From contig JAGMBW010000071.1 of NCBI GenBank assembly GCA_023129535.1, positions 1-54,977 of the forward strand: a stretch of DNA of 54,977 nucleotides, in the 5' to 3' direction. The notes beneath the pieces were generated by a model that saw only the letters and a list, made by a program, of their open reading frames with translations, did not search any database and had not been told where the DNA came from. Both the position numbers and the translations under genes were made by a program. This stretch comes from Desulfobacterales bacterium (GTDB lineage: Bacteria > Desulfobacterota > Desulfobacteria > Desulfobacterales > C00003060). This document shows, in pieces, positions 36,403 to 54,895 of the stretch (position 1 is the stretch's first letter; every line of letters starts with the position of its first letter).

Positions 36403-37029
36403 TCACCTTTTTGTCATATTAGCCGTAATAATCTGGACTAATTCCATCAGTTTAAGTTTTTCTTGGTTTGGAATTTCCTGATCCTCCATCCAATCAATGG
36501 ATATCTTATCTTGCCCCAGAACAAATGCTTTAACTGCTACCTCCCAAAGGCAGGCCTTTTCCCCCTTACAATGACCAATTTTCACTAATTTTTTCTTCAA
36601 AACCGAAGCCTCTTTCAGCACCTCCTTATCTCCTCTTGCCTTTTGAAGGAGATTAGCGGAGGCGGGCGAGAGGACATCCTCTATAAGGGCCGTAATGTAA
36701 TTATTATCGAACGGCTTGGTGACATAATCATAAGCCCCCAATCTCATTGCCGCCCTGGCGGTTTTCATTGTCCCGTATCCCGTAATTATGATTACTTCTA
36801 TATTTTCATTTATTCTTTTAATCCGGCGCAAAACGTCGATTCCGCTCATATCGGGCAGCTTCAAGTCTAACATTACCAAATCCGGGCTTTTTTCAGCTAC
36901 AACCTCTAACGCCTTTTTGCCATTACTTGCTGTAAGGACCGTATATTGTTCCTTGCTTAATAACCTTTGAAAAACTGCAAGTATCATTTCCTCATCGTCT
37001 ACCACTAAAATAGTCTGTTTTCTTTTCAC
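36403..37029 (-). CDS. Response regulator (CheY-like receiver) with an unassigned ~85-aa C-terminal domain
   Basis: ILVVDDEE...DLVMLDLKLPDMSG...ITGYG...DYVTKPFD. Confidence 0.85.
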   Translation of the reverse strand: MKRKQTILVVDDEEMILAVFQRLLSKEQYTVLTASNGKKALEVVAEKSPDLVMLDLKLPDMSGIDVLRRIKRINENIEVIIITGYGTMKTARAAMRLGAYDYVTKPFDNNYITALIEDVLSPASANLLQKARGDKEVLKEASVLKKKLVKIGHCKGEKACLWEVAVKAFVLGQDKISIDWMEDQEIPNQEKLKLMELVQIITANMTKR

Positions 37030-37475
37030 TTTAAGTCTTCCTTTGCGTCCTTTGCGCCTTTGCGGTGAGGTGAAGGGTTACTCTTTTTCTTAGGAAGCGT
37101 TATTTCCAAAATGCCGTTTTTAAAATATTCCACTGTATTTGCAATATCCACATCTGCCGGCAGCTCAATCTCTTCTTTGAATTCCTGTTCCTCGTGTTTG
37201 GCAAAAATGATATACCTGTCAGGTTTTATATCGATGCTTACCTCGCCCCTTGAAAAACTACCCATGTCTATTATAATCTTCACCTCTTTCGCTTCTCTGA
37301 ACACGTCCACAAGAGGTTCTCTTATTTTCTTAAAAATAGGCTTGGTTTCATATATCCACTGTCGAGGTCTCCTGTAGACCTTTGGCTCAAACCGCCTCTC
37401 TTCCCGTCCCTTTCTAAGACTGCTAATTTTTCTATGCGCGCCTATACTTGTTATGGGTGGTATGCTCCTAATCAT
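37026..37475 (-). CDS. Hsp20/alpha-crystallin family protein
   Basis: VDVFREAKEVKIIIDMGSFSRGEVSIDIKPD...IELPADVD...FKNGILEITLPKK. The start and stop overlap both neighbours. Confidence 0.8.
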   Translation of the reverse strand: MIRSIPPITSIGAHRKISSLRKGREERRFEPKVYRRPRQWIYETKPIFKKIREPLVDVFREAKEVKIIIDMGSFSRGEVSIDIKPDRYIIFAKHEEQEFKEEIELPADVDIANTVEYFKNGILEITLPKKKSNPSPHRKGAKDAKEDLK

Positions 37476-39793
37476 GATCGTTTATCCTTATCGCCAAATA
37501 CAATTTCACCCATCTTGTTCAAATCAGCTACCCCCCGGACCTCATGGGGAAACAAGGGAACTTTTGTTACAATACGGGCGGGAAACCTTGAATGAATCTT
37601 TTTCATATATCCCTGCTGCTCCATCCTTTTGCAGGAGCAAAAATCACAATCCGTTTGGGGAATGACCATGTTGATTGCGATGTGATTACAGGGGACCCTG
37701 GCGCTCTCCAAGGCGTCTACAAGTCGTTCCAGCTCAAGAAAGCCCATGGCCTCAGGGATAGTCACCGCGACAAAAGCCGTTCTTTTGACGTCCACGAATG
37801 CCTCCTGAATCCTCCTCACATTCCTGGACATGGCCAGTGCCTTTTCAGCGGCCTTGGCCAACCTGACCACTCCCCTGTATTTCAACAACAACCTGAAAAA
37901 TGCCTTCAACCATTCCCTGACCATATCAGGAAGCTCCAAAAAGCGAAGAAGGTGGCCGGTGGGAGAGGTATCCAGGATAAAGATATCAAATTTTCCTTCC
38001 TTCTTCAGATCCATGATCATATCCAGGGCCATGATCTCGTCGAGACCCGGCGGCGCAAGGGTAAACAGTTCCGTCATGACCTCACGGTCGAATTTTATAT
38101 CAACGCCGCTGGTCAAAAATCTGTCGAAGAGTGCTTCTATGTCTTTCTTGTACCCCTCCTTGAAATCCTCAAACAACTTATCCGCATCTATCTCCAAAGC
38201 GAAAAGATTGGTATTGACAGGTCCAAGGTCCGAGGTCCAATGTCCAAGGTCCGAGGAGTTGTCCAAAGTCCGAGGTCCAATGTCCAATGTCTTTCCATGG
38301 TTACCTGCTGACTTTGGACTTTGGACTTTGGACTTTGGACCCATCACTTCCGACTTTGGACTTTGGACAGTTCTTGGACTTTGGACTTTGGACGTTGGAC
38401 TATAATCTATTGGCGTCACCTTATCCCCAATCGTCAACTTAAACGAATCGGACAGGGAATGGGCTGGGTCCGTGGAGAAAACAAGGACCTTTTTTCCTGG
38501 ATTACATCGCGCCAAATGAAGTGAGGCGGCTGAAGCAAGGGAGGTCTTGCCCACTCCGCCCTTGCCGCCAAAGAGGACAAATTCGAGATCGGGATCGAGG
38601 GTCAGATACGCCTGGGGCTCTTCATCAGTCTGAGCTACCTTCGGCAGTCTGTAAGGCTTGCCCTTTCCTAAGAGATAGTCCGCCAGGCCTTTCAGTTCTT
38701 CGACCCCTCGGATCTCCCTGGGAAACAACGGGACTTTTATCAAATTATATAGTGAAAAAACATCTTCGATTTCGGACAAAGGCTCCCTTTGATCCTCTTT
38801 TTTTGCTGTGCAAAACGCACAGCCTTCGCTATCCCCGACCCTGTTGACGACAATCTCCTTCACCGGGATGTGGTTCTTGTCCAGACTGCTCAGGAGTCTC
38901 CTGGTCTCATATATACTCATTGGCTCCGGAATAGTCACCGGAACGAACCGGGTTATCTTCTCGTTCGAGAGGAGCTTTTTAACCCTATCAATATCCGAGG
39001 AGAGGTTGTCGAGGAAAATATCACACTCATCTTTGACATACCTTTTTCCGGTAAAATGGGCAGCCATGTAACGGTGCTTGTGCTGCATCAGATCCATAAC
39101 CTCAACCCATTTCAGCATCTGTTCGGGAAGGGCAAGCATCCGCATGGTGTGCCCGGCCGGGGCAGTATCCACTATCAGGATATCATAACTTCCCTCCTTC
39201 AAAATATTGGCTATCTCGATGATGGCCATGACCTCATCCATGCCCGGAAGCGAAAGGTCGAAAAATTCGGCAATGTCCTGCTGGTCAAAATAGGTTCCCC
39301 TCTTCGCAAGTTTCTTCATTACGGGATCATTCTTCTCTCTGAACTCCTCTAACAACCTGTTTGCATCTAACTCACGCGCAAACAAGTTTGCGCGGTCCGA
39401 TGTCCGTTGTCCAATGTCCAATGTCTGATGTTGTCCGATGTCAGACGTCCCGCCATGATCCCTGCCCGAGCTTGGACTTTGGACCTTGGACCTTGGACTT
39501 TGGACTTTGGACCTTGGACGCATCACTTCTGACTTTGGACTTTGGACTTTGGACTTTGGACTATAATCTATTGGTGTGACTTTATCCCCTATCTCTATCC
39601 CAAAGCTATCGCCCAGGGAATGGGCCGGATCGGTCGATATGACCAACACCTTCTTGTCGCTGGGATAAGACCGGGCCAACTGCACAGCCGCAGCCGCAGC
39701 CATGGTAGTCTTGCCCACGCCGCCCTTTCCACCGAACAGGATCAAGCGCAGGTCTCTGTTCTGAAAATATTCAGGTACCCTGCGGGAAATCAT
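37472..39793 (-). CDS. Tandem (two-domain) ArsA/Get3-family ATPase with repeat-encoded insertions in both halves
   Basis: Two GGKGGVGKT(T/S) P-loops, two STDPAHSL motifs and two DT(A/S)P(A/T)GHT(M/L)R switch motifs. Insertions are at 39389-39568 and about 38215-38400. Confidence 0.9.
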   Translation of the reverse strand: MISRRVPEYFQNRDLRLILFGGKGGVGKTTMAAAAAVQLARSYPSDKKVLVISTDPAHSLGDSFGIEIGDKVTPIDYSPKSKVQSPKSEVMRPRSKVQSPRSKVQSPSSGRDHGGTSDIGQHQTLDIGQRTSDRANLFARELDANRLLEEFREKNDPVMKKLAKRGTYFDQQDIAEFFDLSLPGMDEVMAIIEIANILKEGSYDILIVDTAPAGHTMRMLALPEQMLKWVEVMDLMQHKHRYMAAHFTGKRYVKDECDIFLDNLSSDIDRVKKLLSNEKITRFVPVTIPEPMSIYETRRLLSSLDKNHIPVKEIVVNRVGDSEGCAFCTAKKEDQREPLSEIEDVFSLYNLIKVPLFPREIRGVEELKGLADYLLGKGKPYRLPKVAQTDEEPQAYLTLDPDLEFVLFGGKGGVGKTSLASAASLHLARCNPGKKVLVFSTDPAHSLSDSFKLTIGDKVTPIDYSPTSKVQSPRTVQSPKSEVMGPKSKVQSPKSAGNHGKTLDIGPRTLDNSSDLGHWTSDLGPVNTNLFALEIDADKLFEDFKEGYKKDIEALFDRFLTSGVDIKFDREVMTELFTLAPPGLDEIMALDMIMDLKKEGKFDIFILDTSPTGHLLRFLELPDMVREWLKAFFRLLLKYRGVVRLAKAAEKALAMSRNVRRIQEAFVDVKRTAFVAVTIPEAMGFLELERLVDALESARVPCNHIAINMVIPQTDCDFCSCKRMEQQGYMKKIHSRFPARIVTKVPLFPHEVRGVADLNKMGEIVFGDKDKRS
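38215..38400. repeat. Palindromic heptamer array (GTCCAAN)n...(TTGGACN)n translated in frame within ArsA half 2
   Basis: Read directly from the sequence. It encodes ...SKVQSPRTVQSPKSEVMGPKSKVQSPKS...TLDIGPRTLD...HWTSDLGP. Confidence 0.85.
39389..39568. repeat. Palindromic heptamer array translated in frame within ArsA half 1
   Basis: Encodes DYSPKSKVQSPKSEVMRPRSKVQSPRSKVQSPSS...TSDIGQHQTLDIGQRTSD, at the same structural position (after GDKVTPID) as in half 2. Confidence 0.85.
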
Positions 39794-40716: not shown

Positions 40717-40718
40717 TT

Positions 40719-41261: not shown

Positions 41262-41272
41262 TTTGTTAACCT

Positions 41273-42355
41273 CTAAACCGAGGGGTGAGGTCCGCCCTCG
41301 AGCCTCTCCTGATCCGTAATGGCAGCAATGAGGGTTCCCCTGGCTACCGCATGTAGAGGAGAAGAGGCCATTTTTACCTTGCCGATTTCCATAGGGAATT
41401 TAACCTGTGATAGTGCTTTATTAAATTTAACTAAAAATCCCTTCGGCATAGTTGTCCCACCTGAAATTACCAGAGTCACCGGTTTGGTGAAACGAGGTAG
41501 CTTAGGGTTGTTATCAAATTCTTGCTTGATACTTTTCAGAACATAATTTATGAGATTATCGTAGTAAATGGCCAGGGCGGTTTCTATGTGGGATTGGGTC
41601 TTCACATTGGTGAGGTCAAGAGATTTCTCTTTTACTTCACACACCCGGCTGGCGGTTTCCCCTAAGGCAATCCCCACTTGTTCATCAATCCAGTCACCTG
41701 ATTTGCTCAGACTGAAGCTTACCACTGGAACCGACATATAACTGAGACACATATTCACCATACCTGCCCCGAAAGAGATGCCAATGCCGGTGAACTCCTC
41801 GTCGGCTAATTCTGAAAAGATTATACCCATACCTTCGTTAATCGGCTTTGGCGTATATCCGGCTTTTTCCAGGAATCTTTTGACAATATTTTCATGGTAA
41901 ATGATATCAAAATCGGCATCAAGTGGAGCAGCCGGGACTGAATAGTAAACTATCTCCCCCTTGCATTTAGGCCGGCCAATCACGCTTTGTATGATGAGTT
42001 CAATCATTGGTAAGCTCTCTTTTTCTGAAGGACTGATTACCCCCTTTCTCAAAGGTCGGCGTAATTCCCGGTGGAAAATATTTGCCATCTCCATAGCCTC
42101 ATCGCCTATCACATAAAGACTTCCATCTTTTTCAATATACTTTACGTTAATCTTGTTAAGCATCTTTTTGGTGAAATCGCCAGGCTCAATGTTAAAAAAG
42201 GCATCCCTCTGTCTTCGGAAAACAATATTTCCTTTTTCCCTTTCGGCGCAGTAAATAAAGGCAGTGCCAACATCCAGACCTTTACCTAAGTCTTTTTCCA
42301 CAGTAGCTTCCGCCCTCTTCGCCCTACGGTTTTTCGCACCTGTTTTTGTCACCAC
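41273..42355 (-). CDS. Actin-like ATPase (ParM/MreB/MamK superfamily)
   Basis: GLDVGTAFIY (phosphate 1), GIGISFGAGMVN (phosphate 2) and LVISGGTTMPKGF (adenosine motif). Confidence 0.75.
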   Translation of the reverse strand: MVTKTGAKNRRAKRAEATVEKDLGKGLDVGTAFIYCAEREKGNIVFRRQRDAFFNIEPGDFTKKMLNKINVKYIEKDGSLYVIGDEAMEMANIFHRELRRPLRKGVISPSEKESLPMIELIIQSVIGRPKCKGEIVYYSVPAAPLDADFDIIYHENIVKRFLEKAGYTPKPINEGMGIIFSELADEEFTGIGISFGAGMVNMCLSYMSVPVVSFSLSKSGDWIDEQVGIALGETASRVCEVKEKSLDLTNVKTQSHIETALAIYYDNLINYVLKSIKQEFDNNPKLPRFTKPVTLVISGGTTMPKGFLVKFNKALSQVKFPMEIGKVKMASSPLHAVARGTLIAAITDQERLEGGPHPSV

Positions 42356-43813: not shown

Positions 43814-44584
43814 CTAATCCGGAACATATTGTACTTTATTCCTACAATGTCTACATTCCATAACTCTTCCATCAGTTTTAAGTACTATATCTCCATCACA
43901 ATGTGGACATTTCTCTTTGCTTGTCGGCCCTGCTGGGGGCTTTGTGGACTTGCTTTTATGTGGCTTAAGAGGCGCTGGAGTGTACGGCTTAATTGGCACA
44001 GGGGTGTATGGCTTCAGTGGTGCTGGACTGTACGGCTTAAGCGGTGCTGGAGTGTAGGGCTTCGGTGGTACTGGTTTGTACGCTTTGAGCGGTGCTGGAG
44101 TGTAGTCCTTTAATGGTGCAGGCTTGTAGGCTTTAAGGGGCACGGGAGTGTAGTCCTTTAACGGTACAGGTTTGTAAGGCTTAAGAGACGCCGGAGTGTA
44201 GTCCTTCAATGGTGCCGGTTTATACGGCTTAAGCGGTGCTCGGGTGTAGGGCTTGAGTGGAACCGGAGTATAGTCCTTTAATGGCACTGGCGTGTACGGC
44301 TTAAGAGCTGGCGTGTACGGCTTCGATGGTTCTGGTTCGTATGCCTTGAGCGGCGCTGGACTATAGTCCCTCAATGGCGCTGGTTTGTACGCCTTAGTAG
44401 GGACAGGGGTGTACGGCTTGAGTGGAACTGGCTTGTATGGCTTAAGCGGCACAGGAGTGTAGGCATTCAGTCGCTTAGGCTTATAGGAAGGCCTGGATTT
44501 GGATCTGGGATGGTCTTTACCCCGCTTTATGAATTTTTCCCTCCACCTTTTATCCTTAATTATCTCTTGAGCCTTTTCTTGCAT
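43814..44584 (-). CDS. Proline-rich octapeptide-repeat protein (about 20+ x PLKxYxPx) with a C-terminal zinc ribbon
   Basis: The repeats span about 43940-44470. The C-terminus has CPHCDG...CRHC. Confidence 0.7.
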   Translation of the reverse strand: MQEKAQEIIKDKRWREKFIKRGKDHPRSKSRPSYKPKRLNAYTPVPLKPYKPVPLKPYTPVPTKAYKPAPLRDYSPAPLKAYEPEPSKPYTPALKPYTPVPLKDYTPVPLKPYTRAPLKPYKPAPLKDYTPASLKPYKPVPLKDYTPVPLKAYKPAPLKDYTPAPLKAYKPVPPKPYTPAPLKPYSPAPLKPYTPVPIKPYTPAPLKPHKSKSTKPPAGPTSKEKCPHCDGDIVLKTDGRVMECRHCRNKVQYVPD

Positions 44585-44662: not shown

Positions 44663-45622
44663 TCAGTGGGTATTGTTCAAAGTCCGAGGTCCAAGGTCCG
44701 GAGTCTTGCCATGCTCGCTTACTGACTTTGGACATTGGACTTTGGACAATCTTATCTCCAGCAAATTGTTTTTCAGATGCATCTGATGGTTATCAGAGTT
44801 TACCTCAGCGGGCAGACGGATGATTTCCTTCCAGGTGGAATCAGTCTTCTCGGATCTGACCGTAACCTGGTCTCTGTTGACCTCAAGCCTTAAATCGGAC
44901 GCCTCGGTCCCTCTCACTTCCATGATGACCTGTATATGGGAAGCTTCATCGAATATATCCAATACCCGGTCTTTACTCTGTATCCGTTTCTCCTGCTGCC
45001 CCATCAGCCACCAGCTAAATAAAACCTTTTCTCCGGTTTCCGGGTCCACCCTTGATCTTTCAAAAGAGAGAATCGGACATCCAACCGTCTTTTCTGCGAT
45101 GGGATTGATCGTCTCCTTGATGTTCAGAAGGATATGCATATGGTTTGGCGCATCGATCAGTTCGGCCAACTCGTCGATCCTGGCGTGGCGATTCTCCCAC
45201 AGGTACCACAAGATATCCCGGCTTTCAGGATCTAATTGAGCAGCAATCTTTTCAATAGTCTCCTGATCGACCTTTAAAAGTGAGGTTTGATAGATTATTT
45301 TTTTCCGCCAGTCTCCCAAATCGTTTGCGACGAACCAGATCTTGCCTTCCCTTGAGCCGTTTCTGGCTTTATAGACAATACATAAGGATTCCCTTTTTCT
45401 GAGAACATAGTGAAGCCTTTCTATTGCCAAATCCTTAATTTGGTCGAGTGGGATCTCAAATCTAATTGTTGGCCTCTGATACATAATAAACCTCTGGCTG
45501 GTCAGAAGACACTGGGCTACTTTCCAGCCAGAGCGAAAATTATGCTTATACGACCCCTGGCCCTGTAGTATTAGCTGTTCGCCTGTTTGAAGTCTCGGAG
45601 TGTTGGCTTTTTGGGAAATCAT
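44663..45622 (-). CDS. Multidomain protein: N-terminal PH/GRAM-like domain, central domain, C-terminal Hsp20-like domain
   Basis: WKVAQCLLTSQRFIMYQRPTIRFEIPLDQIKDL resembles a PH-like domain. VLDIFDEASHIQVIMEVRGTEASDLRLEVNRDQVTV...NNLLEIRL resembles an alpha-crystallin domain. The last 25 or so aa are encoded by the heptamer array. Confidence 0.7.
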   Translation of the reverse strand: MISQKANTPRLQTGEQLILQGQGSYKHNFRSGWKVAQCLLTSQRFIMYQRPTIRFEIPLDQIKDLAIERLHYVLRKRESLCIVYKARNGSREGKIWFVANDLGDWRKKIIYQTSLLKVDQETIEKIAAQLDPESRDILWYLWENRHARIDELAELIDAPNHMHILLNIKETINPIAEKTVGCPILSFERSRVDPETGEKVLFSWWLMGQQEKRIQSKDRVLDIFDEASHIQVIMEVRGTEASDLRLEVNRDQVTVRSEKTDSTWKEIIRLPAEVNSDNHQMHLKNNLLEIRLSKVQCPKSVSEHGKTPDLGPRTLNNTH

Positions 45623-45626
45623 TATT

Positions 45627-45658
45627 CGTTGCTGGTTGCTGGTTGCTGGTTGCTGGTT
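45627..45658. repeat. (GTTGCTG)n heptamer array, left flank of four-helix-bundle gene A
   Basis: Near-complementary to (AACGAGC)n at 46075-46105. Confidence 0.85.
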
Positions 45659-46074: not shown

Positions 46075-46105
46075 AACGAGTAACGAGCAACGAGCAACGA
46101 GCAAC
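46075..46105. repeat. (AACGAGC)n heptamer array, right flank of four-helix-bundle gene A
   Basis: The reverse complement GTTGCTC differs by 1 nt per unit from the left-flank unit GTTGCTG. Confidence 0.85.
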
Positions 46106-46123
46106 ACAACCCACAACCTCATT

Positions 46124-47872
46124 TTACACTTTCTCCAGCAACTTCCTCAACTCACTCGTCCTTTCTTCAATGACTCCACTTTCCCCTTCAGCCAGTGCCT
46201 CTTTCAGATTCAAAATAGCCCTCTCAATCTCGCCCAAACAAGAAAGTGACTGTTTCTCCTCGTTCTCCTCGATGACTAATTCGGCTGCACGGATCATGTT
46301 GTCGGCCTGGATATTGATTTCCACCTCCTCGCGTCTCTTCATATCTTCTTCGGCATGCGCTTCGGCTTCCCTGACTGCCTGTTCTACCTGGTCATCCGAC
46401 AACAGGTGTGAGGCGTCAATCCTTATGCCGGTCTGTTCTTCGGTATGAAGATCCTGGGCGGAGACCTTTACTATTCCGTTGACATCGATCTTAAAGGTAA
46501 CCTCCACCTGTGCCTTTCCCCTGGGCAGGGGCGGAATGTCGGTCAACTGGAATTTCCCCAGGCTGATATTATCTGCTGCTGCCTCCCGCTCACCTTGAAG
46601 CACGTGGATATCCATCACGGTTTGATCGTTTTCAGCGTTGGTAAATATCTGCCCGGCGGAAGTGGGAATTGTAGAATTGCGAGGGATGATCCTTGCAAAA
46701 AGGCTGCCCTGTGTTTCAAGCCCTAATGAAAGGGGGGTTACGTCTACTAATACGACATCGTTAATCTCTCCCATCAAAACACCTGCCTGGACAGCCGCTC
46801 CAATTCCTACCACCTCATCCGGGTTGATCTTAATGTAAGGGTTTTTATGAAAGGTTTTTTCCGCCAGACGGCGAATAGACGGCATCCGGGTGGAGCCACC
46901 CACCAGCACGACCCGATCAATCCCTTCCGTAGTCAATTTGGCATCGGCTAAGGCCTGCCAGGTAGGTCCGAGAAGTTTTTCCTTCAAGTCTGCGGTTATA
47001 GCTTCGAATGTTTCCCGATCAATTGAAGCCTCCAGATTGCTGAGCTCGCCGCTGTGGGTCCCACCCGCTCGTCCACCTTTGGCGGAATAGCAGGCAGGTT
47101 TGATAAAAGGGAGGGAGATTTTAGTCCTAAGTTTGTAAGAAAGTTCCCTCTTGGCCTTTTCACTGGCCTCTTTCAGACGCTGGAGTGCCATTTTGTCCGA
47201 TTTCATGTCAAACCCATGCTCATTCATGAATTTCTCGGCCAGATAATCAACCAGCCTTTCGTCCCAGTCATCGCCGCCAAGTCTGGTATTTCCGCTCACA
47301 GCTTTAACCTGGAAGAGACCATCTCCCAGCTCCAGGATGGACACGTCAAATGTCCCTCCTCCCAGATCCCAGACAAGAATGGTCTGAATCTCTTCACGAT
47401 TGAGCCCATAGGCCAGGGAGGCCGCTGTAGGCTCGTTGATTATCCTCATCACATCAAAGCCGGCCATCATACCGGCCTCTTTGGTCGCCTGCCGCTGTCC
47501 ATCATTGAAATAGGCCGGAACCGTGATGACCGCCTTTTCCACCTGCTCTCCCAGGTACTTCTCCACGTCTGATTTTATCTTGCGCAAAATAAAGGCCGAT
47601 ATCTCCTGTGGGGAATAAGCTCTGCCATTTACCGATACTCTATAATCGGTGCCCATATGCCTCTTAATGGATACAACCGTCTTTTCCGGATTGGCTGCGG
47701 CCTGTCTTCTGGCTACCGATCCGACCAGTTTATGCCCCCGCACGGTTTCGGCAAAGACAGAAGGGGTGAGGTTCTGGCCTTCGGCGTTCTTGATCACTTT
47801 GGCCCGCCCATCTTCTATTAGGGCCGCCACTGAGTAAGTGGTTCCCAGGTCTATGCCGATTGCTTTGGTCAT
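46124..47872 (-). CDS. Hsp70/DnaK-family chaperone paralogue (582 aa)
   Basis: IGIDLGTTYSVAA, VWDLGGGTFDVSIL and LVGGSTRMP. The ATG at 47872 is preceded by GAAGGAGA. The upstream 40 codons of the called ORF are heptamer-array read-through. Confidence 0.9.
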   Translation of the reverse strand: MTKAIGIDLGTTYSVAALIEDGRAKVIKNAEGQNLTPSVFAETVRGHKLVGSVARRQAAANPEKTVVSIKRHMGTDYRVSVNGRAYSPQEISAFILRKIKSDVEKYLGEQVEKAVITVPAYFNDGQRQATKEAGMMAGFDVMRIINEPTAASLAYGLNREEIQTILVWDLGGGTFDVSILELGDGLFQVKAVSGNTRLGGDDWDERLVDYLAEKFMNEHGFDMKSDKMALQRLKEASEKAKRELSYKLRTKISLPFIKPACYSAKGGRAGGTHSGELSNLEASIDRETFEAITADLKEKLLGPTWQALADAKLTTEGIDRVVLVGGSTRMPSIRRLAEKTFHKNPYIKINPDEVVGIGAAVQAGVLMGEINDVVLVDVTPLSLGLETQGSLFARIIPRNSTIPTSAGQIFTNAENDQTVMDIHVLQGEREAAADNISLGKFQLTDIPPLPRGKAQVEVTFKIDVNGIVKVSAQDLHTEEQTGIRIDASHLLSDDQVEQAVREAEAHAEEDMKRREEVEINIQADNMIRAAELVIEENEEKQSLSCLGEIERAILNLKEALAEGESGVIEERTSELRKLLEKV

Positions 47873-47889: not shown

Positions 47890-48000
47890 GTCCGTTGTCC
47901 GTTGTTAGTTGTCCGTTGTCGATTCTCCGGTTGCAGGTTGCAGGTTGCAGGTTGCAGGTTGCAGGTTGCAGGTTGCAAGTTGCAGGTTGCAAGTTGCAGG
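47890..48000. repeat. (GTCCGTT)n and (GGTTGCA)n heptamer arrays, left flank of four-helix-bundle gene B
   Basis: About 10 units of GGTTGCA/AGTTGCA, complementary to the units at 48403-48461. Confidence 0.85.
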
Positions 48001-48020
48001 CTGAAGGTTACGGGTTGCGA

Positions 48021-48386
48021 CTACTTCCATTCTTTTGCGACATACTCGATGAATTTGTTAATCTTCTTGCCCAGTTTGTAATACTCATTCAGGAGAAACG
48101 ATAGTTCTGTTTCATCAACTTCATGGGTATCTTTGATGAAATTCAGATGCAGAGTTGTTTCATCGCACGATGCGTGAGCATAGATCAGGAACTTAATAAA
48201 GTCGGCTTTATATCTTCTCCGCCCATAGCCTTCTACAATTGAGGACGTAATTCCTTTCGAGGAGCGTCTTATTTGGCTTCCCTCTTCATAAAGTTCATAT
48301 TTTGGCAAGGTTAATGACATCCTATGTATTCTGACTGCCAGATCATAAGAGAGAGTGTAGATTTCCAAATCCCTGTAGCTCTTCAC
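48021..48386 (-). CDS. Four-helix-bundle protein (23S IVS protein / Avd-like), copy B
   Basis: A GTG start at 48386 follows AAGGAG. KSYRDLEIYTLSYDLAVRIHRMSLTLPKYELYEEGSQIRRSSKG closely matches copy A. Confidence 0.8.
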   Translation of the reverse strand: MKSYRDLEIYTLSYDLAVRIHRMSLTLPKYELYEEGSQIRRSSKGITSSIVEGYGRRRYKADFIKFLIYAHASCDETTLHLNFIKDTHEVDETELSFLLNEYYKLGKKINKFIEYVAKEWK

Positions 48387-48402
48387 TATATCAACTCCTT
48401 GA

Positions 48403-48502
48403 CCTGCAACTCGCAACTCGCAACCCGCAACCTGCAACCTGCAACTTGCAACTTGCAACTTACCCACTACCCACTGACCACTGACAACGGACCACTGATC
48501 AC
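48403..48502. repeat. (CTGCAAC/TCGCAAC/TTGCAAC)n then (CCACTGA)-type arrays, right flank of gene B
   Basis: The reverse complement of the units equals the GTTGCAG units on the left flank. Confidence 0.85.
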
Positions 48503-49579
48503 TTTCTTCCTCGCACTCACCCACCCACATCCGGAGCATCCTTGCTCTAACAATTCCTTTATGGAAGCCGTTCTTCCGCACTGGGGGCAGGTCTCAGTTT
48601 CTTGCTCTGTCTGGGATTCTACCCGCCCGCTTATGATTCTCTTGAGTATTTTGTTCCATTCCTCCAGGGCATCACCCGAAAAGGTGGCCACTCTTCTTGT
48701 GCCGTTAGCGGCATAGAGGAGATCCAGGACCTTCTCTTTCTTCAGAATATTAGTGAGGTCTCTTGTTTCCATCATCGAACCTATTATTCCACTTACAGGA
48801 ATCTCTATGACTATCCTTCGTTCAAAGTTATACCACCAACACACTCTTTTATCAGTAAGATACAAGTAACCGGGCCTCCAGGTGTCCTCTATAATGCCCT
48901 CTGCATCCATCAGATACCACATCTTCCCACTGCAAATAAGCTGCTCTCCCTGGGCTAAGAACTCTGCCGCCCTTTCTTCAAGAACTGGAATCTCTGGATC
49001 TTTTTTCAGGACAAGCCCCAGCTCTTTCATCCTTTTCTCTATGGTCTCTTTCAGTTGATCTATATCTAGACCACTCAGTCTTGCTATCTTGCTCCCTTCC
49101 AGAAGCAGATATAACTCTTCCCTCTCTTTTTTTTCGGTGAAATGCTCCCCTTTCCTGATCAGCAGACTCTGTATCTTCATCAGGGGAGTCTCGAATAAGA
49201 CTTCCCCAAAATCTTCATGATAGAGGAGCAACCTCTCGCTGGTCAGGTAAAGGTAGCCATATCTCCAGGCTGTATATATCCCTTCACTTGAGTAGTATGC
49301 CCCTAACATCTTGAGGATGACCTCTTCTCCCTGCACCATGCAGCTTTTTTTCTTGCTTCTGTGCTCCTGCTCCCAGTCCCGGATACGTTCATCCCACGCC
49401 TGCATCATCCCGTATTTCAGCATGGTATCCATACCGGCCAGGGCTGCCCTCAGATTAACCCCGATTAAAGGAATGCCCGCAACCGATACGATCAGGTCGG
49501 CATGGATCACCAGGCCCTTGTCCAGCACCCGATCAAGAAGATCGACTAGAGTTGCGTTGGTGTTACGTTGAGGATCCAT
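48467..49579 (-). CDS. GvpA/GvpJ-domain protein fused to two PH/GRAM-like domains and a C-terminal zinc ribbon
   Basis: LVDLLDRVLDKGLVIHADLIVSVAGIPLIGVNLRAALAGMDTMLKYG is a GvpA core. There are two GYLYLT(S/D)(E/K)R modules, and CPQCGR...GCSGCGW. The ATG at 49579 begins MDPQRN. Confidence 0.85.
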   Translation of the reverse strand: MDPQRNTNATLVDLLDRVLDKGLVIHADLIVSVAGIPLIGVNLRAALAGMDTMLKYGMMQAWDERIRDWEQEHRSKKKSCMVQGEEVILKMLGAYYSSEGIYTAWRYGYLYLTSERLLLYHEDFGEVLFETPLMKIQSLLIRKGEHFTEKKEREELYLLLEGSKIARLSGLDIDQLKETIEKRMKELGLVLKKDPEIPVLEERAAEFLAQGEQLICSGKMWYLMDAEGIIEDTWRPGYLYLTDKRVCWWYNFERRIVIEIPVSGIIGSMMETRDLTNILKKEKVLDLLYAANGTRRVATFSGDALEEWNKILKRIISGRVESQTEQETETCPQCGRTASIKELLEQGCSGCGWVSARKKVISGPLSVVSG

Positions 49580-49584
49580 AAGAT

Positions 49585-49720
49585 TGTCCGAAGTCCAACG
49601 TCCAAAGTCCAAGGTCCTAAAGAAGTCCAACGTCCGAAGTCCAATGTCCAACGTCGGATGTCATTCAGACCTTGGACATCGGACATTGGACTTGTGATAT
49701 TGGACATTGGACATATTAAA
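49585..49720. repeat. (GTCCAAN)n followed by (TTGGACA)n arrays, left flank of four-helix-bundle gene C
   Basis: Complementary to the (TTGGACN)n array at about 50104-50148. Confidence 0.8.
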
Positions 49721-49721: not shown

Positions 49722-50087
49722 TCACTTATCACCCTTCAAATAACGGATAAATCCACTAATTAGCTTCTTGACTACTACGGCCTTTTCATAAACTTCATTA
49801 AATTGTTCCTTTGAAATGTACTCTTGATCAAGAGCAACATAAGAGTGAGATTGAACTTCGGATGCAGACCGGCGGGAATAGATTAGGAACCGGATGAACT
49901 CTGCATCGGACTGAGAATCAAATCCTTCTGCTATGTTTGACATTACCGAAATTGAGGCACCTTCCATCTGATCTCTTAACCTATAGCTTTTGATAAGATT
50001 GCCAACTGAAGTGATTCCAAAAACCATTTTTGTTAGGATTCTACCTTCTTGCCAAGCCTTAATATCTTCAAAGCGCTCGATCTTCAT
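49722..50087 (-). CDS. Four-helix-bundle protein (23S IVS protein / Avd-like), copy C (divergent)
   Basis: FEDIKAWQEGRILTKMVF...SNIAEGFDSQSDAEFIRFLIYSRRSASEVQSH. Confidence 0.8.
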   Translation of the reverse strand: MKIERFEDIKAWQEGRILTKMVFGITSVGNLIKSYRLRDQMEGASISVMSNIAEGFDSQSDAEFIRFLIYSRRSASEVQSHSYVALDQEYISKEQFNEVYEKAVVVKKLISGFIRYLKGDK

Positions 50088-50151
50088 TACAAATCACCTC
50101 CAACTTTGGACATTGGACTCTGGACTTTGGACATCGGACATTGGACATTCT

Positions 50152-51252
50152 TCAAACAAATGAGTATGGTGCCCAAGGCCCGGTATATCGAACGGAAAAA
50201 CCCTCCAGGGCATCGATCTTTTCCACCTCATCTCCCAGCCCTTTACTCCCGTCCCCAGGAAGCAAACAGGATAGATTCATGAGCATCTGTTTGTTTTCGT
50301 CCTCTGTTTTTTTTGTCTTTTCTACACGGAGGTCATTCACGTGGGGTTTGATTCTCTCATAGAATTCCTTAAAGTATCGGTCTGCCTGCTTTTCCATCTC
50401 CTTTTTCAAAAGGTCTTCCAGTTTCTGCCTGTACATGTAGGCCAGGCCTCTCGGTTTGGACTTTATTTCTTCGTCCAACTTCTTTATTTCAACACTTTCT
50501 TCGGTAATCTTTTGAGCCATAACTTTAGAATCCCAAAATACCTGCACCCCGTATTCTGCCCTGCCTCTGACCTTTTCCATCTTCGCTTTCAGGTTTTCGT
50601 AATCCTCCTTTAACCAATTCCTCATATTCTCTTCCGGGTCAGAAGCCTCATTCCCTCGAATGATGGTGTCAAACCCCATAGGAAGCACGGTACCATATCT
50701 TTCCCAGGCCGCATCGACCACTTTTTGATGGGCCACTATCCAGCCTTTCACAACCTCTTGATCTTCTGATTGGTATGGCTCAGCAGGACAATTATGGACT
50801 ACGGCACAGAGATCTTTGTAAGGAATGCTATAGACCTCGTTGCCTTCTATGCCGATCCTGCCAAGATTTACGCTCTCGCTGCCTTCGACAATGCAGTAAA
50901 GGTATCTTCCGCTCATTAGTCCAATGTCCAATGTCAGAGGTCCAATGTCAGAAGACTGAGGTCCAGGGTCTGAGCTATGAGGTCCGACGTCCGATGTTCG
51001 GTGTCCGATGTCCGGTTTCCTACGACTTTGGACTTTGGACTTTGGACATTGGACGTTTTGAAATGCAACATCCATAGACAACGCCCCTTCCTCTTCCACC
51101 ATTTCTTCCAGAACCCCGGTAATGGAGTCCCGAATGGCCGTCCTGAGTTCTGGCAGAAGAGAAGTGCTTACTATTTCTCTTATCGTATCTTCATTCTCGG
51201 CAAGAATATCCCTTATCTCTTGCTTCACCATCTTTTTAATTGTCTCTTTCAT
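50152..51252 (-). CDS. gvpF: GvpL/GvpF family protein, core from the ATG at 50916; possibly carrying a repeat-linked N-terminal helical extension from 51252
   Basis: The core MSGRYLYCIVEG...YKDLCAVVH...WIVAHQKVV...VLPMGFDTI...RYTGPWAPYSF is a typical GvpF/L. There is no stop between 51252 and 50916, a segment encoded by the heptamer array, and no Shine-Dalgarno site before 50916. Confidence 0.8.
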   Translation of the reverse strand: MKETIKKMVKQEIRDILAENEDTIREIVSTSLLPELRTAIRDSITGVLEEMVEEEGALSMDVAFQNVQCPKSKVQSRRKPDIGHRTSDVGPHSSDPGPQSSDIGPLTLDIGLMSGRYLYCIVEGSESVNLGRIGIEGNEVYSIPYKDLCAVVHNCPAEPYQSEDQEVVKGWIVAHQKVVDAAWERYGTVLPMGFDTIIRGNEASDPEENMRNWLKEDYENLKAKMEKVRGRAEYGVQVFWDSKVMAQKITEESVEIKKLDEEIKSKPRGLAYMYRQKLEDLLKKEMEKQADRYFKEFYERIKPHVNDLRVEKTKKTEDENKQMLMNLSCLLPGDGSKGLGDEVEKIDALEGFSVRYTGPWAPYSFV

Positions 51253-51337
51253 GCTCTGCGCCTGAAGTCCAATGTCCGACGTCCAATGTCCGAAGTCCAA
51301 TGTCCAAGGTCGAAGGTCCGAGATCAAGGGCGATGAC

Positions 51338-51679
51338 TTACGACATTGGACCTTGGACATTGGACCTTGAACTGTTAGTTCCTTCCCACCTCTCCGGATT
51401 GATCATCTTATCTAATAGTTCATCCACAATATTATCCAGGCCGTCTCTTACCGATTTGACCGACTCGCTGATTCCCTGCTCCTTTTTCATCTCGTCGATT
51501 GCTGTGTCGAGATCCATCAATGCCTGTCCTAACCTCTCGGTCTCTTCTTCGGTGAGGCTTCCCCCTTCCATCCTTTTCAATGCCTGAAGTCTGAGGGCAT
51601 CCTTGATGATCTCGACCAGGGCGACGACTAACCCCATGACTCCGTGTTTGAGATTTTTCTCGTCAATGTCTATGGGCAT
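51338..51679 (-). CDS. gvpK: Gas vesicle protein GvpK
   Basis: GLVVALVEIIKDALRLQALKRMEGGSLTEEETERLGQALMDLD matches the GvpK signature. Confidence 0.8.
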   Translation of the reverse strand: MPIDIDEKNLKHGVMGLVVALVEIIKDALRLQALKRMEGGSLTEEETERLGQALMDLDTAIDEMKKEQGISESVKSVRDGLDNIVDELLDKMINPERWEGTNSSRSNVQGPMS

Positions 51680-51860
51680 AATCAGTGGTCAGTGGTCAGT
51701 TGTCAGTTGTTATTGGTCACATGTTGCATGTGGCATGTTGCAGGTTGCAGGTTACAGGTTGTGCACTCCCTCTCCCGTGACAGGATTTACGAAATCACCT
51801 CAGACGTCCGACTTCTGACCTCCGACCTCCGACCTCCGACTTCTGACTTTGGACCTTGAC
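51680..51860. repeat. Mixed heptamer arrays (CAGTGGT, GTTGCAG, CTCCGAC families)
   Basis: Read directly from the sequence. Partly complementary to the arrays at 52143-52365, so the two sets bracket the plus-strand small gene. Confidence 0.8.
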
Positions 51861-52142: not shown

Positions 52143-52365
52143 GCATCTCCCCTTCTTTTTTTTTGTCCAAAGTCCGAGGTCCAAAGTCCAAAGTCGTATA
52201 TTGCTCTGACAAACGACAAATGACATTGGACATTGGACAGTAAGCTGTATCGTGCGTGTATCGTGTATCCAGCATCCTATATCGTGCAATGAGCAACAAG
52301 CAACGAGCAACCTGTAACGAGCAACGTGCAACGTGCAACCAGGAACGAGCAACCAGCAACTCCCT
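52143..52365. repeat. Mixed heptamer arrays (GTCCAAA, TTGGACA, GTATCGT, AACGAGC families)
   Basis: Read directly from the sequence. Confidence 0.8.
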
Positions 52366-52725
52366 CTACGGACTGATCTTTTGGGCCAGTGCCTTCGCCT
52401 TGGCACTGATCCAGCCGCACCAGGGGCAGCCGGTCGTTATAAGTTCCTCAATAGGAACCCTCTTTTCGCATTGAGGGCAATTTTCCCTGGCTATGAGTGC
52501 CTCTGTCCAGGCGGGGGTCTCCAAATTGGTTCCTGAAGGAAATTCCAAACCATACTTGGCTGCCGTCTCAAAGGATGCCAGGGCGGCCCTAATCTTGATC
52601 CCAAGCAGTTCAACGCCTGCCACAGATACGGTAATGTCTGCGTTAATGACCAATCCCTTATCCAGGATTTTGTCTATTACGTCAGCTAAACCGCCGCCAC
52701 CATTTCGAGATGGTTCTATAGCCAT
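52366..52725 (-). CDS. GvpA/GvpJ-family gas vesicle structural protein with a C-terminal zinc ribbon
   Basis: LADVIDKILDKGLVINADITVSVAGVELLGIKIRAALASFETAAKYGL is very close to the canonical GvpA core. The C-terminus has CPQCEK...GCPWCGW. Confidence 0.88.
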   Translation of the reverse strand: MAIEPSRNGGGGLADVIDKILDKGLVINADITVSVAGVELLGIKIRAALASFETAAKYGLEFPSGTNLETPAWTEALIARENCPQCEKRVPIEELITTGCPWCGWISAKAKALAQKISP

Positions 52726-52927: not shown

Positions 52928-53368
52928 TTACTTCCGAGCGACTCTGGTAACCCCTTTTCCTCCGCAGGTAACGCAAGGCAGGGTAGAGTTGATTCGAGCT
53001 TTTCCAGTACCACCACAATCCTTGCAAATCTCTCTGGATTCCGATACCGTAACCCTGCCTTTTCCTCCACATACGCTGCACGGGAGCCAATCCTGACCGT
53101 AATGCTGGCCTGTTCCCTCACAATAGGCGCATTCTATGGAAGGCTCTTTGACGGTGACGAAACCCTTTCCACCACATGTAGTACATGTAATCCTCTGGCC
53201 AGGATATTTACCGGTTCCTTCACAGAAGGCACACTCGAATACGGGCTCAAAAACCTTTATTTTCCCCCTGCCACTACACACCTGGCATTTAGACAATGTA
53301 GACAGAATCCCGAAAGGATCCAATCCCTCGCCATCACAGTACGCACACTTGTTTTCGATAAGCATCAC
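52928..53368 (-). CDS. DnaJ-type zinc-finger repeat protein (8 x CxxCxGxG) without a J domain
   Basis: The eight motifs are CAYCDGEG, CQVCSGRG, CAFCEGTG, CTTCGGKG, CAYCEGTG, CSVCGGKG, CKDCGGTG and CVTCGGKG. No HPD motif. Confidence 0.8.
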   Translation of the reverse strand: MMLIENKCAYCDGEGLDPFGILSTLSKCQVCSGRGKIKVFEPVFECAFCEGTGKYPGQRITCTTCGGKGFVTVKEPSIECAYCEGTGQHYGQDWLPCSVCGGKGRVTVSESREICKDCGGTGKARINSTLPCVTCGGKGVTRVARK

Positions 53369-54120
53369 TATCTCCTTTCTGTTGAGTCCCTCGCCACCTG
53401 GATATTGTAGAAATCTCCCTTTCTTTCATAGGTTATTAACGAATTGTTTTTCAATTCATCAAGACTCTGTGCCAATTTGTCTCTGGCATCGATAATTCTT
53501 GTCTCAGAAATTTGAGAAAACTTTAGAAGATCGCTTTCCCTGACTCGAAACGGCTTCTGTTTCCCTCGATCCACAACAGAAGAATAAATCTGAAATGCAG
53601 AAGGGGAAAGGTTATCCCGGGTCCGGAAAAACAATTTGTCCATCTTTTCTTGCAGGCCCAGATTGGAGTTGATATATTTTATAATGGCAAGGTACTTCGG
53701 GATTTTTTCTTCGACTTCAATTTCGTTAGCAATCTCGTCGTATTTGAGCTTAAAGGTCTTTTGTAATTTTACCCTATCTCCATCATGTAGAAGAGTAGTC
53801 TCAATATCTTTCATTTTTCCTTTAAGACTCTCTATCGTCATAAAAATGCTATTAAGATCCTGCATCTTTGGTTTCAGTTTCTCAACAAACTGATTTATTC
53901 CTCGACTAAATTCGTTCTCCTTTTCCTTTACTTCTCTGAAAAGAGGAGCAATTTCAGTGTCGATGATGTCCAGTTTTGCCTGCCATTCTGCTTGTTTGAG
54001 GGCCTCAGTCAGATCTTCCAACTCCTGTTTGCTTGCTTCTTTTGTCGTTTCAAGTTTGGAAATTTCCTCTCTTTTTGCCTCGACCTGGTCTTTCAATTGT
54101 TCTATCTTTTTGTTCTCCAT
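53368..54120 (-). CDS. Coiled-coil protein with a possible C-terminal winged-helix
   Basis: 250-aa K/E-rich heptad-like sequence. The stop and start are coupled to the downstream zinc-finger gene. Confidence 0.6.
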   Translation of the reverse strand: MENKKIEQLKDQVEAKREEISKLETTKEASKQELEDLTEALKQAEWQAKLDIIDTEIAPLFREVKEKENEFSRGINQFVEKLKPKMQDLNSIFMTIESLKGKMKDIETTLLHDGDRVKLQKTFKLKYDEIANEIEVEEKIPKYLAIIKYINSNLGLQEKMDKLFFRTRDNLSPSAFQIYSSVVDRGKQKPFRVRESDLLKFSQISETRIIDARDKLAQSLDELKNNSLITYERKGDFYNIQVARDSTERR

Positions 54121-54141: not shown

Positions 54142-54447
54142 CTAACCTCCTATTTCCTTCCCTTCATCGGCCCCTTCCTCGGGTCTCACATGGACCACCC
54201 CTTTGCCATGGCAGTTCCAGCAGAAGAGCTTGCTCCTGTAATAGACGCCGGTGCCCTCACAGGCGGGGCAGGTCTCATAAGGCTTTATGACATAAACGGT
54301 CTTATGGCCATTGCAGACCGGGCAGTATGAAAGAGGAGATAAGAGTTTGAATGGATCTTTGCCCTTACCCTTGCAAAATGCACAGGTGATCTTTTCCATC
54401 TCAGGAAGGATCGTTTCTGCGGACTTTCTTCTTCGTCTCTTAACCAT
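54142..54447 (-). CDS. Small DnaJ-type zinc-finger protein (4 Cys pairs) without a J domain
   Basis: CAFCKGKG, CPVCNGHK, CPACEGTG and CWNCHGKG. The ATG at 54447 is chosen over 54456 and 54540 on Shine-Dalgarno spacing. Confidence 0.7.
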   Translation of the reverse strand: MVKRRRRKSAETILPEMEKITCAFCKGKGKDPFKLLSPLSYCPVCNGHKTVYVIKPYETCPACEGTGVYYRSKLFCWNCHGKGVVHVRPEEGADEGKEIGG

Positions 54448-54895
54448 CTTTTCCATCCCCCTTTTTAGAAAGCTCAATAGTTTTTTTCCATTCCTTAAGG
54501 TTCCTGGCAAAAAGAAAAAATACTTTTTTAAGGCTATCACTCTGTTGCATGAGCTGAAGTTGCTCCACCTTCTTTTTGGGAACCCAATCCCTTTGTATAA
54601 TTGATATATCTTTCAGAGAATTCAATGATATCTCAAAGAGCTTGTTTGCCCCTTGCAGGAATATAAGGCGCTCTTTGGTCAGGTATAGATAACCTGGCTT
54701 CCAGTTGGCCCTGGTTCGCATGCCATCTTGATAGCTTGCCTGCCCGGCCTTGATCACTTCTTCTCCTTCGATATCAGAAGGCATCTCCATCTCCCGCTGC
54801 ATCTCCAGACCACTTCTTAACCTCAACTGTGCCGCCTGGTTAAAACGCCCGTATGCAGTCCTCTTCATCGCGCCTGTATCCCTCTCAATTCCCAT
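54440..54895 (-). CDS. PH/GRAM-like domain protein
   Basis: WKPGYLYLTKERLIFLQGANKLFEISLNSLKDISI, the same module as in 48467-49579. Confidence 0.65.
   Translation of the reverse strand: MGIERDTGAMKRTAYGRFNQAAQLRLRSGLEMQREMEMPSDIEGEEVIKAGQASYQDGMRTRANWKPGYLYLTKERLIFLQGANKLFEISLNSLKDISIIQRDWVPKKKVEQLQLMQQSDSLKKVFFLFARNLKEWKKTIELSKKGDGKDG

Follow-up and report, generated by a model that had tools for sequence, protein, structure and literature searches.

The window analysed here, the whole 54,977-nucleotide stretch of contig JAGMBW010000071.1 from a Desulfobacterales bacterium, carries a cluster of gas-vesicle (gvp) genes. Our subject is one gene of this cluster, which encodes a long form of the minor gas-vesicle protein GvpM: a GvpM-type core followed by two pleckstrin-homology-like (PH-like) domains and a putative zinc ribbon. 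Our analysis established the identity of the core, the slot that the gene occupies, the fold of its tail, the reuse of the tail's modules in neighbouring proteins, and the optionality of the tail. The GvpM core itself is of an already known kind; the PH-PH-Zn tail on GvpM is newly described.

The gene lies on the minus strand (the first-pass annotation of this DNA, made from the letters alone, gave no strand) and reads from an ATG at 49579 to a stop at 48467-48469 as a single uninterrupted open reading frame (ORF). Its 42.3-kDa product is 100% identical to the deposited protein P0001, "MAG: gas vesicle protein [Desulfobacterales bacterium]", encoded on a 63.9-kb contig, where MAG stands for metagenome-assembled genome. 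An alternative TTG start at 49651 would only add translated heptamer-repeat DNA; we placed the start at the ATG because all homologues begin with M(D/E)PxRN, which is kept in 30 of 30 aligned homologues. The ORF and every motif quoted in the first-pass annotation were found in the translation, and the architecture that it proposed, a core fused to two PH/GRAM-like domains and a zinc ribbon, was borne out. The modules run in the order core, helix, PH1, linker, PH2, zinc ribbon and tail:

48467..49579, minus strand: coding sequence of the long-form GvpM-type protein, 370 aa plus stop (ORF list and translation)
49400..49579, minus strand: residues 1-60, Gas_vesicle (GvpA-superfamily) core, GvpM-type (PF00741 and NCBIfam GvpM)
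49340..49399, minus strand: residues 61-80, conserved amphipathic extension of helix alpha2, MQAWDERIRDWEQEHRSKKK (model and alignment)
49010..49339, minus strand: residues 81-190, PH-like domain 1, PH1 (AlphaFold2, Foldseek and GRAM matches in homologues)
48944..49009, minus strand: residues 191-212, poorly conserved acidic linker with an isoelectric point (pI) of 4.6 (low model confidence, no secondary structure)
48602..48943, minus strand: residues 213-326, PH-like domain 2, PH2 (cross-match of the PH1 profile, AlphaFold2, Foldseek)
48515..48601, minus strand: residues 327-355, predicted C4 zinc ribbon, C331/C334/C348/C351 (alignment and AlphaFold2 model)
48470..48514, minus strand: residues 356-370, unconserved C-terminal tail (below 50 in the AlphaFold2 confidence score, pLDDT)

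The final ~11 codons enter a heptanucleotide tandem array, in which Tandem Repeats Finder (TRF) reported CCACTGA x4.7 at 48471-48503.

The hydrophobic core, LVDLLDRVLDKGLVIHADLIVSVAGIPLIGVNLRAALAGMDTMLKYG (residues 11-57), belongs to the GvpA superfamily. Residues 10-48 matched the full PF00741 (Gas_vesicle) profile, positions 1-39, with 60.8 bits against a cut-off of 25, and the same profile was matched by 30 of 30 homologues. Among the NCBIfam subfamily models, GvpM (NF046091) scored best, with 95.5 bits over all 67 positions, followed by GvpJ (51.2 bits) and GvpA (43.6 and 42 bits). The GvpM score is under the curated NF046091 cut-off of 109 bits, and NF046091 is an "exception" model for haloarchaeal proteins; we therefore filed the protein as GvpM-type by homology and position, and not as a haloarchaeal equivalog. 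A family profile aligned residues 5-57 to the solved GvpA structures 8gbs (E 1e-10) and 7r1c (E 7e-9), with which the alpha1-beta1-beta2-alpha2 segment is alignable. The first-pass annotation had read a clear GvpA/J shell core. The GvpA-superfamily core is real, but it is that of a GvpM-type minor paralogue; identity as a generic GvpA shell subunit was rejected because the GvpM profile is the best match, the gene sits in the gvpM slot, and short GvpMs occupy the same slot in related clusters.

In the full-length AlphaFold2 (AF2) monomer model (mean predicted local distance difference test, pLDDT, of 68), a helix spans residues 43-79, and within its extension W62, D63, R67 and E70 are invariant among 30 aligned homologues. 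Residues 1-41 fall below a pLDDT of 50 and form no hairpin, and the model contains no confident docking of core and tail (predicted template modelling score, pTM, 0.37). Such low confidence in the core would be unsurprising if its fold forms only within the assembly.

The region beyond the helix holds two paralogous domains, carrying GYLYLTSER (residues 108-116, PH1) and GYLYLTDKR (residues 237-245, PH2); a hidden Markov model (HMM) of PH1 matched PH2 with an independent E-value (i-E) of 5.6e-10. AF2 models of the full-length protein and of the tail only gave the same topology twice, seven strands and a C-terminal helix (strands 87-170 with helix 173-186, and strands 214-302 with helix 305-326, in the full-length model). 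The tail-only model, computed from 84 sequences, had a mean pLDDT of 78.8, with 87-96 in the PH cores. Foldseek comparison of the target models with the PDB returned 165 and 128 matches at E<=1e-3. The top matches were BBS5 (3.5e-9 and 1.1e-8), FARP1/2 PH-PH, Rtt106, Spt16M, Pob3, Dok7 PH-PTB, centaurin and archaeal CheF, with a Foldseek probability of 1.00 for BBS5, FARP PH-PH, Rtt106, Spt16M, Dok7 and CheF; the GRK2 PH domain superposed over ~116 columns at 2.6-3.1 Å, and the Akt1 PH domain with a TMt of 0.66. Structure prediction and Foldseek thus gave a confident PH-like fold for the middle region, as the first-pass annotation had anticipated.

In Pfam, the target itself stays below the thresholds of GRAM (PF02893, 17.7 against 23.6 bits) and Vps36-GLUE (PF11605, 17.0 against 24.1 bits). 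Among 30 homologues, GLUE was matched by 27, on PH2 (best 5.7e-8), and GRAM by 25, on PH1 (best 1.6e-7), and other PH-clan families were matched by fewer (bPH_3 10, PH 6, CheF-arch 5, BBL5 4); for the PH clan as a whole, 27 of the 30 gave matches. Membership in the GRAM or GLUE families proper is unsupported, since the target is under both thresholds, and the assignment holds only at the level of the PH clan or superfamily.

Eukaryotic PH, GRAM and GLUE domains and BBS5 often bind phosphoinositides. As PH, GRAM, GLUE and BBS5 are also the best structural and sequence matches of the tail, one alternative is that the protein anchors or positions vesicles: its PH/GRAM-like domains would bind membrane lipids or a cell structure, with the cell envelope, the forespore or a cytoskeletal filament as proposed targets, and would tether vesicles by their GvpM-containing tips. 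The domains themselves speak against it, being acidic to neutral (pI 5.3 for PH1 and 6.5 for PH2), with acidic beta1-beta2 loops (SSEG, DAEGIIED) and, in a test at the level of sequence, without the basic K-Xn-(K/R)-X-R motif; a classic lipid-binding PH domain is accordingly disfavoured. We return below to what the gene neighbourhood adds to this question.

The C-terminal module contains CPQC (residues 331-334) and GCSGCGW (residues 347-353), two CxxC knuckles ~13 residues apart. Across 84 homologues, its four cysteines and the P, G and W that flank them never vary; in the model it forms small beta-hairpins (strands 328-330 and 337-339) and a helix, and 3 of 30 homologues gave weak Pfam matches to Zn_ribbon_3 and Zn_ribbon_9. 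This element is a putative C4 zinc ribbon, with C331, C334, C348 and C351 as the predicted metal site. A homologous ribbon occurs on the neighbouring GvpJ-type protein of 119 aa, whose C-terminal C4 ribbon, CPQCEKRVPIEELITTGCPWCGWIS, was matched by the ribbon HMM at an i-E of 1.7e-12. Small proteins in which only the ribbon module was detected were observed in 25 loci.

An invariant Cys4 site that is common to GvpJ could also belong to a regulatory gate, in which the tail would sense a ligand through a PH pocket, or redox state or metal through the Cys4 site, and switch release of the GvpM core. The PH fold often serves as a ligand sensor. Histidine-kinase and response-regulator genes flank the cluster, and an optional tail, as found here, would suit a regulatory add-on. 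Yet no ligand-binding family signature was found in the target, the AF2 model provides no confident core-tail docking through which such a switch would act, and a link between the ribbon and redox state found no support in this analysis. We regard a gate of this kind as quite unlikely.

The architecture is widespread. A word-seeded search of 5.8 billion proteins with the target gave 787 matches, the best 120 of which are ~325-416 aa long and 52-100% identical, with 86-100% query coverage. In a scan of GTDB with one genome per species, relatives were found in 242 species genomes, and 80 loci were kept. Matches extend through at least query residue 317 in 78 of these 80; the exceptions are L070, a GPZ form with one PH domain fewer, and L080, which is split into two ORFs. 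HMMs built for the four modules (core, PH1, PH2 and ribbon) and applied to 81 loci revealed core-PH-PH-Zn in 67, core-PH-PH in 10 and fragments in the remainder. The kept loci represent over 12 bacterial phyla and, among the archaea, the two orders Methanophagales and Methanocellales. The carriers include Desulfobacterota, Actinomycetota, Chloroflexota (Dehalococcoidia, Anaerolineales), Atribacterota, Bacteroidota, Verrucomicrobiota, Planctomycetota (Scalindua, Pirellulales), Nitrospirota, Acidobacteriota, Ignavibacteria and Aerophobetes, as well as Bacillota with the cultured Desulfosporosinus, Clostridium, Marinisporobacter, Anaerobacterium and Anaerosacchariphilus. Cultured strains with a long-form cluster include Desulfosporosinus fructosivorans 63.6F, Anaerobacterium chartisolvens DSM 27016, Marinisporobacter balticus DSM 102940 and Clostridium sp. 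ZS2-4. An exhaustive HMMER search of 1.84 billion representatives with the tail alone (residues 75-370) recovered only 149 clusters, and in their full-length members the tail match begins at residue ~75-90. Judged from these sequence matches, the PH-PH-Zn tail occurs almost only behind this N-terminus.

These data also bear on the trivial explanation that a frameshift, mis-assembly or read-through joined a short gvpM to a separate downstream gene. The first-pass annotation had itself named a frameshift or sequencing error as a danger to its reading. Short GvpMs of 84-100 aa with near-identical cores do exist, and some "short" database entries are truncated long forms. However, the ORF is uninterrupted, hundreds of full-length homologues were found, the fusion is conserved across phyla, and the tail almost never occurs behind any other N-terminus. 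Agreement on this scale goes far beyond chance. We therefore rejected a fusion artefact, to which we give practically no chance.

In databases, the long-form proteins are named merely "gas vesicle protein" or "GvpJ", and profile scans of the target found no curated NCBIfam or Pfam model that spans the PH-PH-Zn tail. In the limited set of literature searched, we found no description of gas vesicles combined with PH, GRAM or pleckstrin domains, in agreement with the first-pass remark that the architecture is unfamiliar from characterised gvp systems. Desulfosporosinus fructosivorans carries the long form (locus L078), and Desulfosporosinus cupriresistens makes gas vesicles from a gvp cluster reported to be identical to that of D. 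fructosivorans (PMC12739157). This match provides indirect support that long-form clusters are functional.

A search with the core only (residues 1-72) returned 1131 proteins, the best 120 of which are 80-123 aa long and 75-89% identical to the target core. Short GvpM orthologues stop just past the AWDER.R.WE..HR helix, where PH1 begins in the long form. The short cores are mixed in among the long ones: the median best identity is 91.7%, and 89 of the 120 short cores share at least 90% identity with a long core. Two loci of the same cluster type, L084 and L085, encode an 88-aa GvpM between GvpL and Hsp70, in the order Cdc48, GvpF::J, GvpF, GvpG, GvpO, GvpJ(Zn), GvpK, GvpL, 88-aa GvpM, Hsp70. 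Both retain the GvpJ ribbon, and no tail remnant was found downstream of the short gvpM in either. In another variant (P0274, 116 aa), the GvpM core leads directly into the zinc ribbon (…EISFETCPQCGRTASIKELLEQGCPRCEWIS…) and the PH pair is cleanly absent, which indicates that the modules are independently shuffled. The short GvpMs in the same slot identify the target as a positional orthologue of GvpM and show that the core function does not need the tail. The tail is thus a modular, evolutionarily labile accessory that was repeatedly gained or lost.

In the window, every neighbour of the target is encoded on the minus strand. From the upstream end, the following genes were identified:

54440..54895, minus strand: stand-alone PH-like protein, 151 aa, WKPGYLYLTKERL (PH1 HMM, i-E 1.1e-13)
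54142..54540, minus strand: DnaJ-type CXXCXGXG zinc-finger protein
53368..54120, minus strand: coiled-coil protein, 250 aa
52928..53368, minus strand: second DnaJ-type CXXCXGXG zinc-finger protein
52366..52725, minus strand: GvpJ-type protein, 119 aa, with the C-terminal zinc ribbon (NCBIfam GvpJ 101.6 against GvpM 57 bits)
51338..51679, minus strand: gvpK (PF05121, 68.9 bits)
50152..51252, minus strand: gvpL, adjoining upstream in the operon (NCBIfam GvpL equivalog, 208.3 bits, cut-off 200)
49722-50087, minus strand: intervening-sequence (IVS) protein between gvpL and the target (PF05635)
48021-48524, minus strand: IVS protein between the target and hsp70, overlapping the target 3' end by ~58 nt (PF05635)
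46124..47872, minus strand: DnaK-type Hsp70, the next functional gene downstream (PF00012, E 1e-195; DnaK, 747 bits)
45668-46039, minus strand: third IVS protein, between hsp70 and the PH-Hsp20 gene (PF05635)
44663..45622, minus strand: PH-Hsp20 fusion, 319 aa, N-terminal PH-like domain and C-terminal Hsp20/alpha-crystallin domain (PH1 HMM, i-E 1.8e-9; Hsp20)
43814..44584, minus strand: repeat protein, 256 aa
42372..43751, minus strand: B12-radical SAM enzyme
41273..42355, minus strand: Volactin, actin-like (PF25216, 320 bits)
39808-42355, minus strand: span of Volactin, a 180-aa protein and then a TPR protein
37472..39793, minus strand: ArsA
37026..37475, minus strand: Hsp20
36403..37029, minus strand: response regulator

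In the order GvpJ(Zn)-GvpK-GvpL-target-DnaK, the J-K-L-target part is the classic gvpJKLM order. It extends well beyond this contig: the J-K-L-target order was also found in most of the 81 loci, and a Coprothermobacterota MAG (L002) carries gvpA, gvpN, GvpF::J-domain, GvpF, GvpG, GvpO, GvpF, GvpJ, Hsp20, GvpK, GvpL, the target family, Hsp70, Hsp20 and Cdc48, in this order. Directly upstream of the target family lies GvpL/F in 38 of the 81 loci and a stand-alone PH gene in 11 more; in Bacillota, gvpL and the long gvpM are separated by such a gene. Hsp70 follows the target family immediately in 21 loci and lies in the flanks of 43, and the flanks also hold Cdc48 (44 loci), ArsA (41), the PH-Hsp20 family (60) and GvpJ with its zinc ribbon (60). 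The PH module is therefore reused within the cluster, on the Hsp20 fusion and on the stand-alone protein, the latter of which also gave weak GLUE, CheF and PH matches.

A J-domain with the HPD motif is fused to the C-terminus of GvpF/L in at least 28 of 76 loci. These GvpF/L::J-domain proteins are ~345-385 aa long and contain …FHPDK… (for example, L002 4597-5649, L004 3813-4880, L007 805-1878 and L084 3045-4079). Together with the co-encoded DnaK-type Hsp70, their sequences suggest an Hsp70/J-protein system dedicated to gas-vesicle assembly. We found no description of GvpF/L::J-domain proteins with a dedicated Hsp70 in the literature searched. ArsA and Hsp20 were linked to gvp clusters in 2010, with no mention of the PH tail (PMC2963123).

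Several features of the window were noted in passing. Both zinc-finger proteins that flank the 250-aa coiled-coil protein are Anti-TRAP-like and lack a J-domain; relatives of those at 52928-53368 and 54142-54540 occur in 33 and 14 of the 81 loci, respectively. The 256-aa repeat protein consists of tandem repeats of 24/48 nt (8/16 aa), carries a zinc-ribbon-like motif at its C-terminus and adjoins the B12-binding radical SAM gene; both genes recur in L009, L029, L037 and L039, and the radical SAM gene alone in L082. Just past the window end lie a second ArsA gene and a histidine-kinase/response-regulator pair. The three IVS genes ("23S rRNA intervening-sequence protein", a four-helix-bundle family) are paralogous and each is bracketed by heptamer arrays; none of the other loci examined has them at these places, a hint that the insert may be mobile or selfish.

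Tandem heptanucleotide arrays, with units such as GGTTGCA, TTGGACA, GTCCAAT and GCAACGA, occupy almost every intergenic spacer of the cluster (45628-45658, 46075-46105, 47890-48018, 48405-48503, 49586-49714, 50103-50149, 50919-51054, 51264-51369, 51682-51847, 52165-52195 and 52286-52360). They run on into ORF ends, at the N-terminus of gvpL (whose N-terminal part is made of heptamer-repeat sequence), over the final ~11 codons of the target and in the upstream part of hsp70; their translations in the ORF lists read WTLDFGRWTSD and LQPATCN.

The neighbourhood adds to both sides of the anchoring question. The window cluster contains an actin-like Volactin gene and a TPR gene, and gas vesicles surround the spores of spore-forming sulfate reducers (PMC12739157), as would suit vesicles tethered to a filament or a forespore. 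On the other hand, Volactin was found in the flanks of only 2 of the 81 loci (L041 and L052, where it recurs as a pair with the 180-aa protein), tail-less orthologues exist in the same cluster type, and a PH module carried on a soluble small heat-shock protein (sHsp) suits protein binding better than membrane binding. Anchoring is, in our view, unlikely.

Neither canonical gvpA nor gvpC was seen in the window, and this would fit a further alternative, decoration of the structure as suggested in the first-pass annotation: the protein might form much of the wall as a built-in GvpC analogue, its PH domains coating and cross-bracing the outside. Geometry argues to the contrary. The tail comprises 296 residues, 33.9 kDa and ~41,000 Å^3, and a GvpA lattice site measures 12.07 Å x 48.8 Å (PMC9994262), that is, an area of 589 Å^2, so that stoichiometric tails would need a close-packed coat ~70 Å thick. 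The 34-kDa tail is too large for each 12 x 49 Å site to hold one, and the protein should thus be sub-stoichiometric, which fits a role at the seed or tip. Moreover, related clusters hold an ordinary gvpA of 69-97 aa next to the target family, the core is GvpM-type and not GvpA-type, and GvpM-class proteins are absent from mature vesicle walls (PMC9994262). Stoichiometric decoration is very improbable. As originally stated, the proposal that the domains decorate or anchor the structure through ligand or membrane binding is unsupported, given the tail-less orthologues, the acidic PH domains and the tight lattice.

The reading that we favour is that this long-form GvpM is probably a sub-stoichiometric seed subunit whose cytoplasmic docking or solubilising tail modulates nucleation. 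Like that of short GvpM, its hydrophobic core would insert into the nascent vesicle, at the seed or the tip. The tail would exit at the end of helix alpha2, and since this helix lies on the outer face, it would project into the cytoplasm. There it is most likely a protein-protein docking module, a solubilising module or both, because PH folds bind proteins or clients in double-PH histone chaperones and in CheF, and because the same PH module is fused to a holdase (the sHsp) in clusters rich in ATP-dependent chaperones. Such a tail could hold GvpM, which is prone to aggregate, in solution and recruit clients or helpers to the site of nucleation, with GvpA or GvpJ, the PH-tagged sHsp, the co-encoded Hsp70, and the Cdc48 or ArsA machinery as candidate partners. 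It would modulate nucleation without being mechanistically required for it.

What is known of GvpM agrees with such a role. GvpM is a minor GvpA paralogue that starts new gas vesicles together with GvpJ, GvpK and GvpL. Halobacterium GvpM is essential, of low abundance and prone to aggregation; it binds GvpL through its first 25 residues and GvpF, GvpH and GvpL through its C-terminus (PMC8716928). The mature wall lacks GvpJ, GvpM and GvpS, for which a role as nucleators or tip components was proposed (PMC9994262, PMC11445434).

Several observations weigh against the favoured reading, in addition to the GvpM score below its curated cut-off. The function of the tail is inferred from its fold and genomic context only, and with the N-terminal beta-hairpin below a pLDDT of 50, insertion into the shell receives no structural support from the model. 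Bacillota-type loci have the tail and an adjoining Cdc48 with no Hsp70 nearby, so that Hsp70 is not a universal tail partner, and this candidate is weakened. L084 retains PH-Hsp20 with a tail-less GvpM, and L085 is without any PH module; a PH-PH docking network in which the GvpM tail must pair with PH-Hsp20 is therefore unlikely. Finally, gvpA (~70 aa), gvpN, gvpG, gvpO and Cdc48 were not found in the window (1-54977) or in the visible remainder of the contig (positions 1-4600 of L001), while many related loci carry gvpA, gvpN, gvpG, gvpO or Cdc48 beside the J-K-L-M block. With no gvpA or gvpN on the visible contig, gas-vesicle production by this organism is an assumption.

A bolder variant, which we hold to be doubtful, is that the gvp-specific PH module tags its carriers for delivery to the nascent vesicle and that long GvpM is a nucleation hub, whose PH arms and ribbon would capture GvpA or GvpJ from a dedicated system of Hsp70, J-domain-GvpF, sHsp and Cdc48. 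If true, it would reveal that gas-vesicle nucleation in many anaerobic bacteria and some archaea follows a chaperone-coupled pathway that had gone unrecognised, and would be natural proof that the vesicle seed or tip can display large cargo.

The favoured reading, a long-form GvpM with a modulating tail, can be placed among known systems. Short GvpM, as in gvpFGHIJKLM of Halobacterium salinarum and in bacteria, has the same core and the same slot after gvpJ-K-L, and by analogy the target is expected to share its GvpL-binding, seed-forming role (PMC8716928, PMC11445434). The short protein is a single domain of ~84-100 aa, whereas the target has 370 aa with a 296-residue PH-PH-Zn tail. In haloarchaeal clusters, GvpH counteracts GvpM aggregation; GvpH was not found in the related target-type loci examined, which instead have Hsp70, sHsp, Cdc48 and ArsA. 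GvpJ and GvpS resemble the target as minor GvpA paralogues whose C-terminal extension contacts accessory Gvps (PMC8716928) and which were proposed as tip or seed components (PMC11445434), but their known extensions are short and unstructured, and that of the target consists of folded PH domains. GvpA, at ~70 aa, makes the whole wall on its 12 x 49 Å lattice with no appended domains, whereas the target is too bulky for stoichiometric use. GvpC consists of tandem ~33-residue alpha-helical repeats that run along the GvpA ribs; the target tail is made of beta-sandwich domains and does not qualify as GvpC.

Outside gas vesicles, BBS5, GRAM, Vps36-GLUE, Rtt106, Spt16M, Pob3 and CheF have the same fold, likewise arranged as two domains (Foldseek E 1e-8 to 1e-5), and a similarity in sequence that is weak but recurs, with an identity of only 10-22%. 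None of these tandem PH-like proteins combines the PH pair with a gas-vesicle shell-type core and a zinc ribbon. Several of them use their PH folds to bind proteins or clients and not lipids.

Nucleation is the least understood step of gas-vesicle assembly. The suspected nucleators, the minor GvpA paralogues J, M and S, are tiny, insoluble and hard to study (PMC9994262, PMC11445434). The long form offers a natural, soluble, folded 34-kDa handle on GvpM, present in more than 12 phyla and with tail-less orthologues as built-in controls, and by such a handle the seed complex could be localised, pulled down and studied structurally. The long form also points to an "anaerobe-type" gvp cluster that has been little studied, with its own Hsp70, J-domain-GvpF fusions, Cdc48, ArsA and PH-tagged sHsp. 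By implication, GvpM would have a C-terminus that points into the cytoplasm and accommodates large fusions, which may be useful for the engineering of acoustic reporter vesicles.

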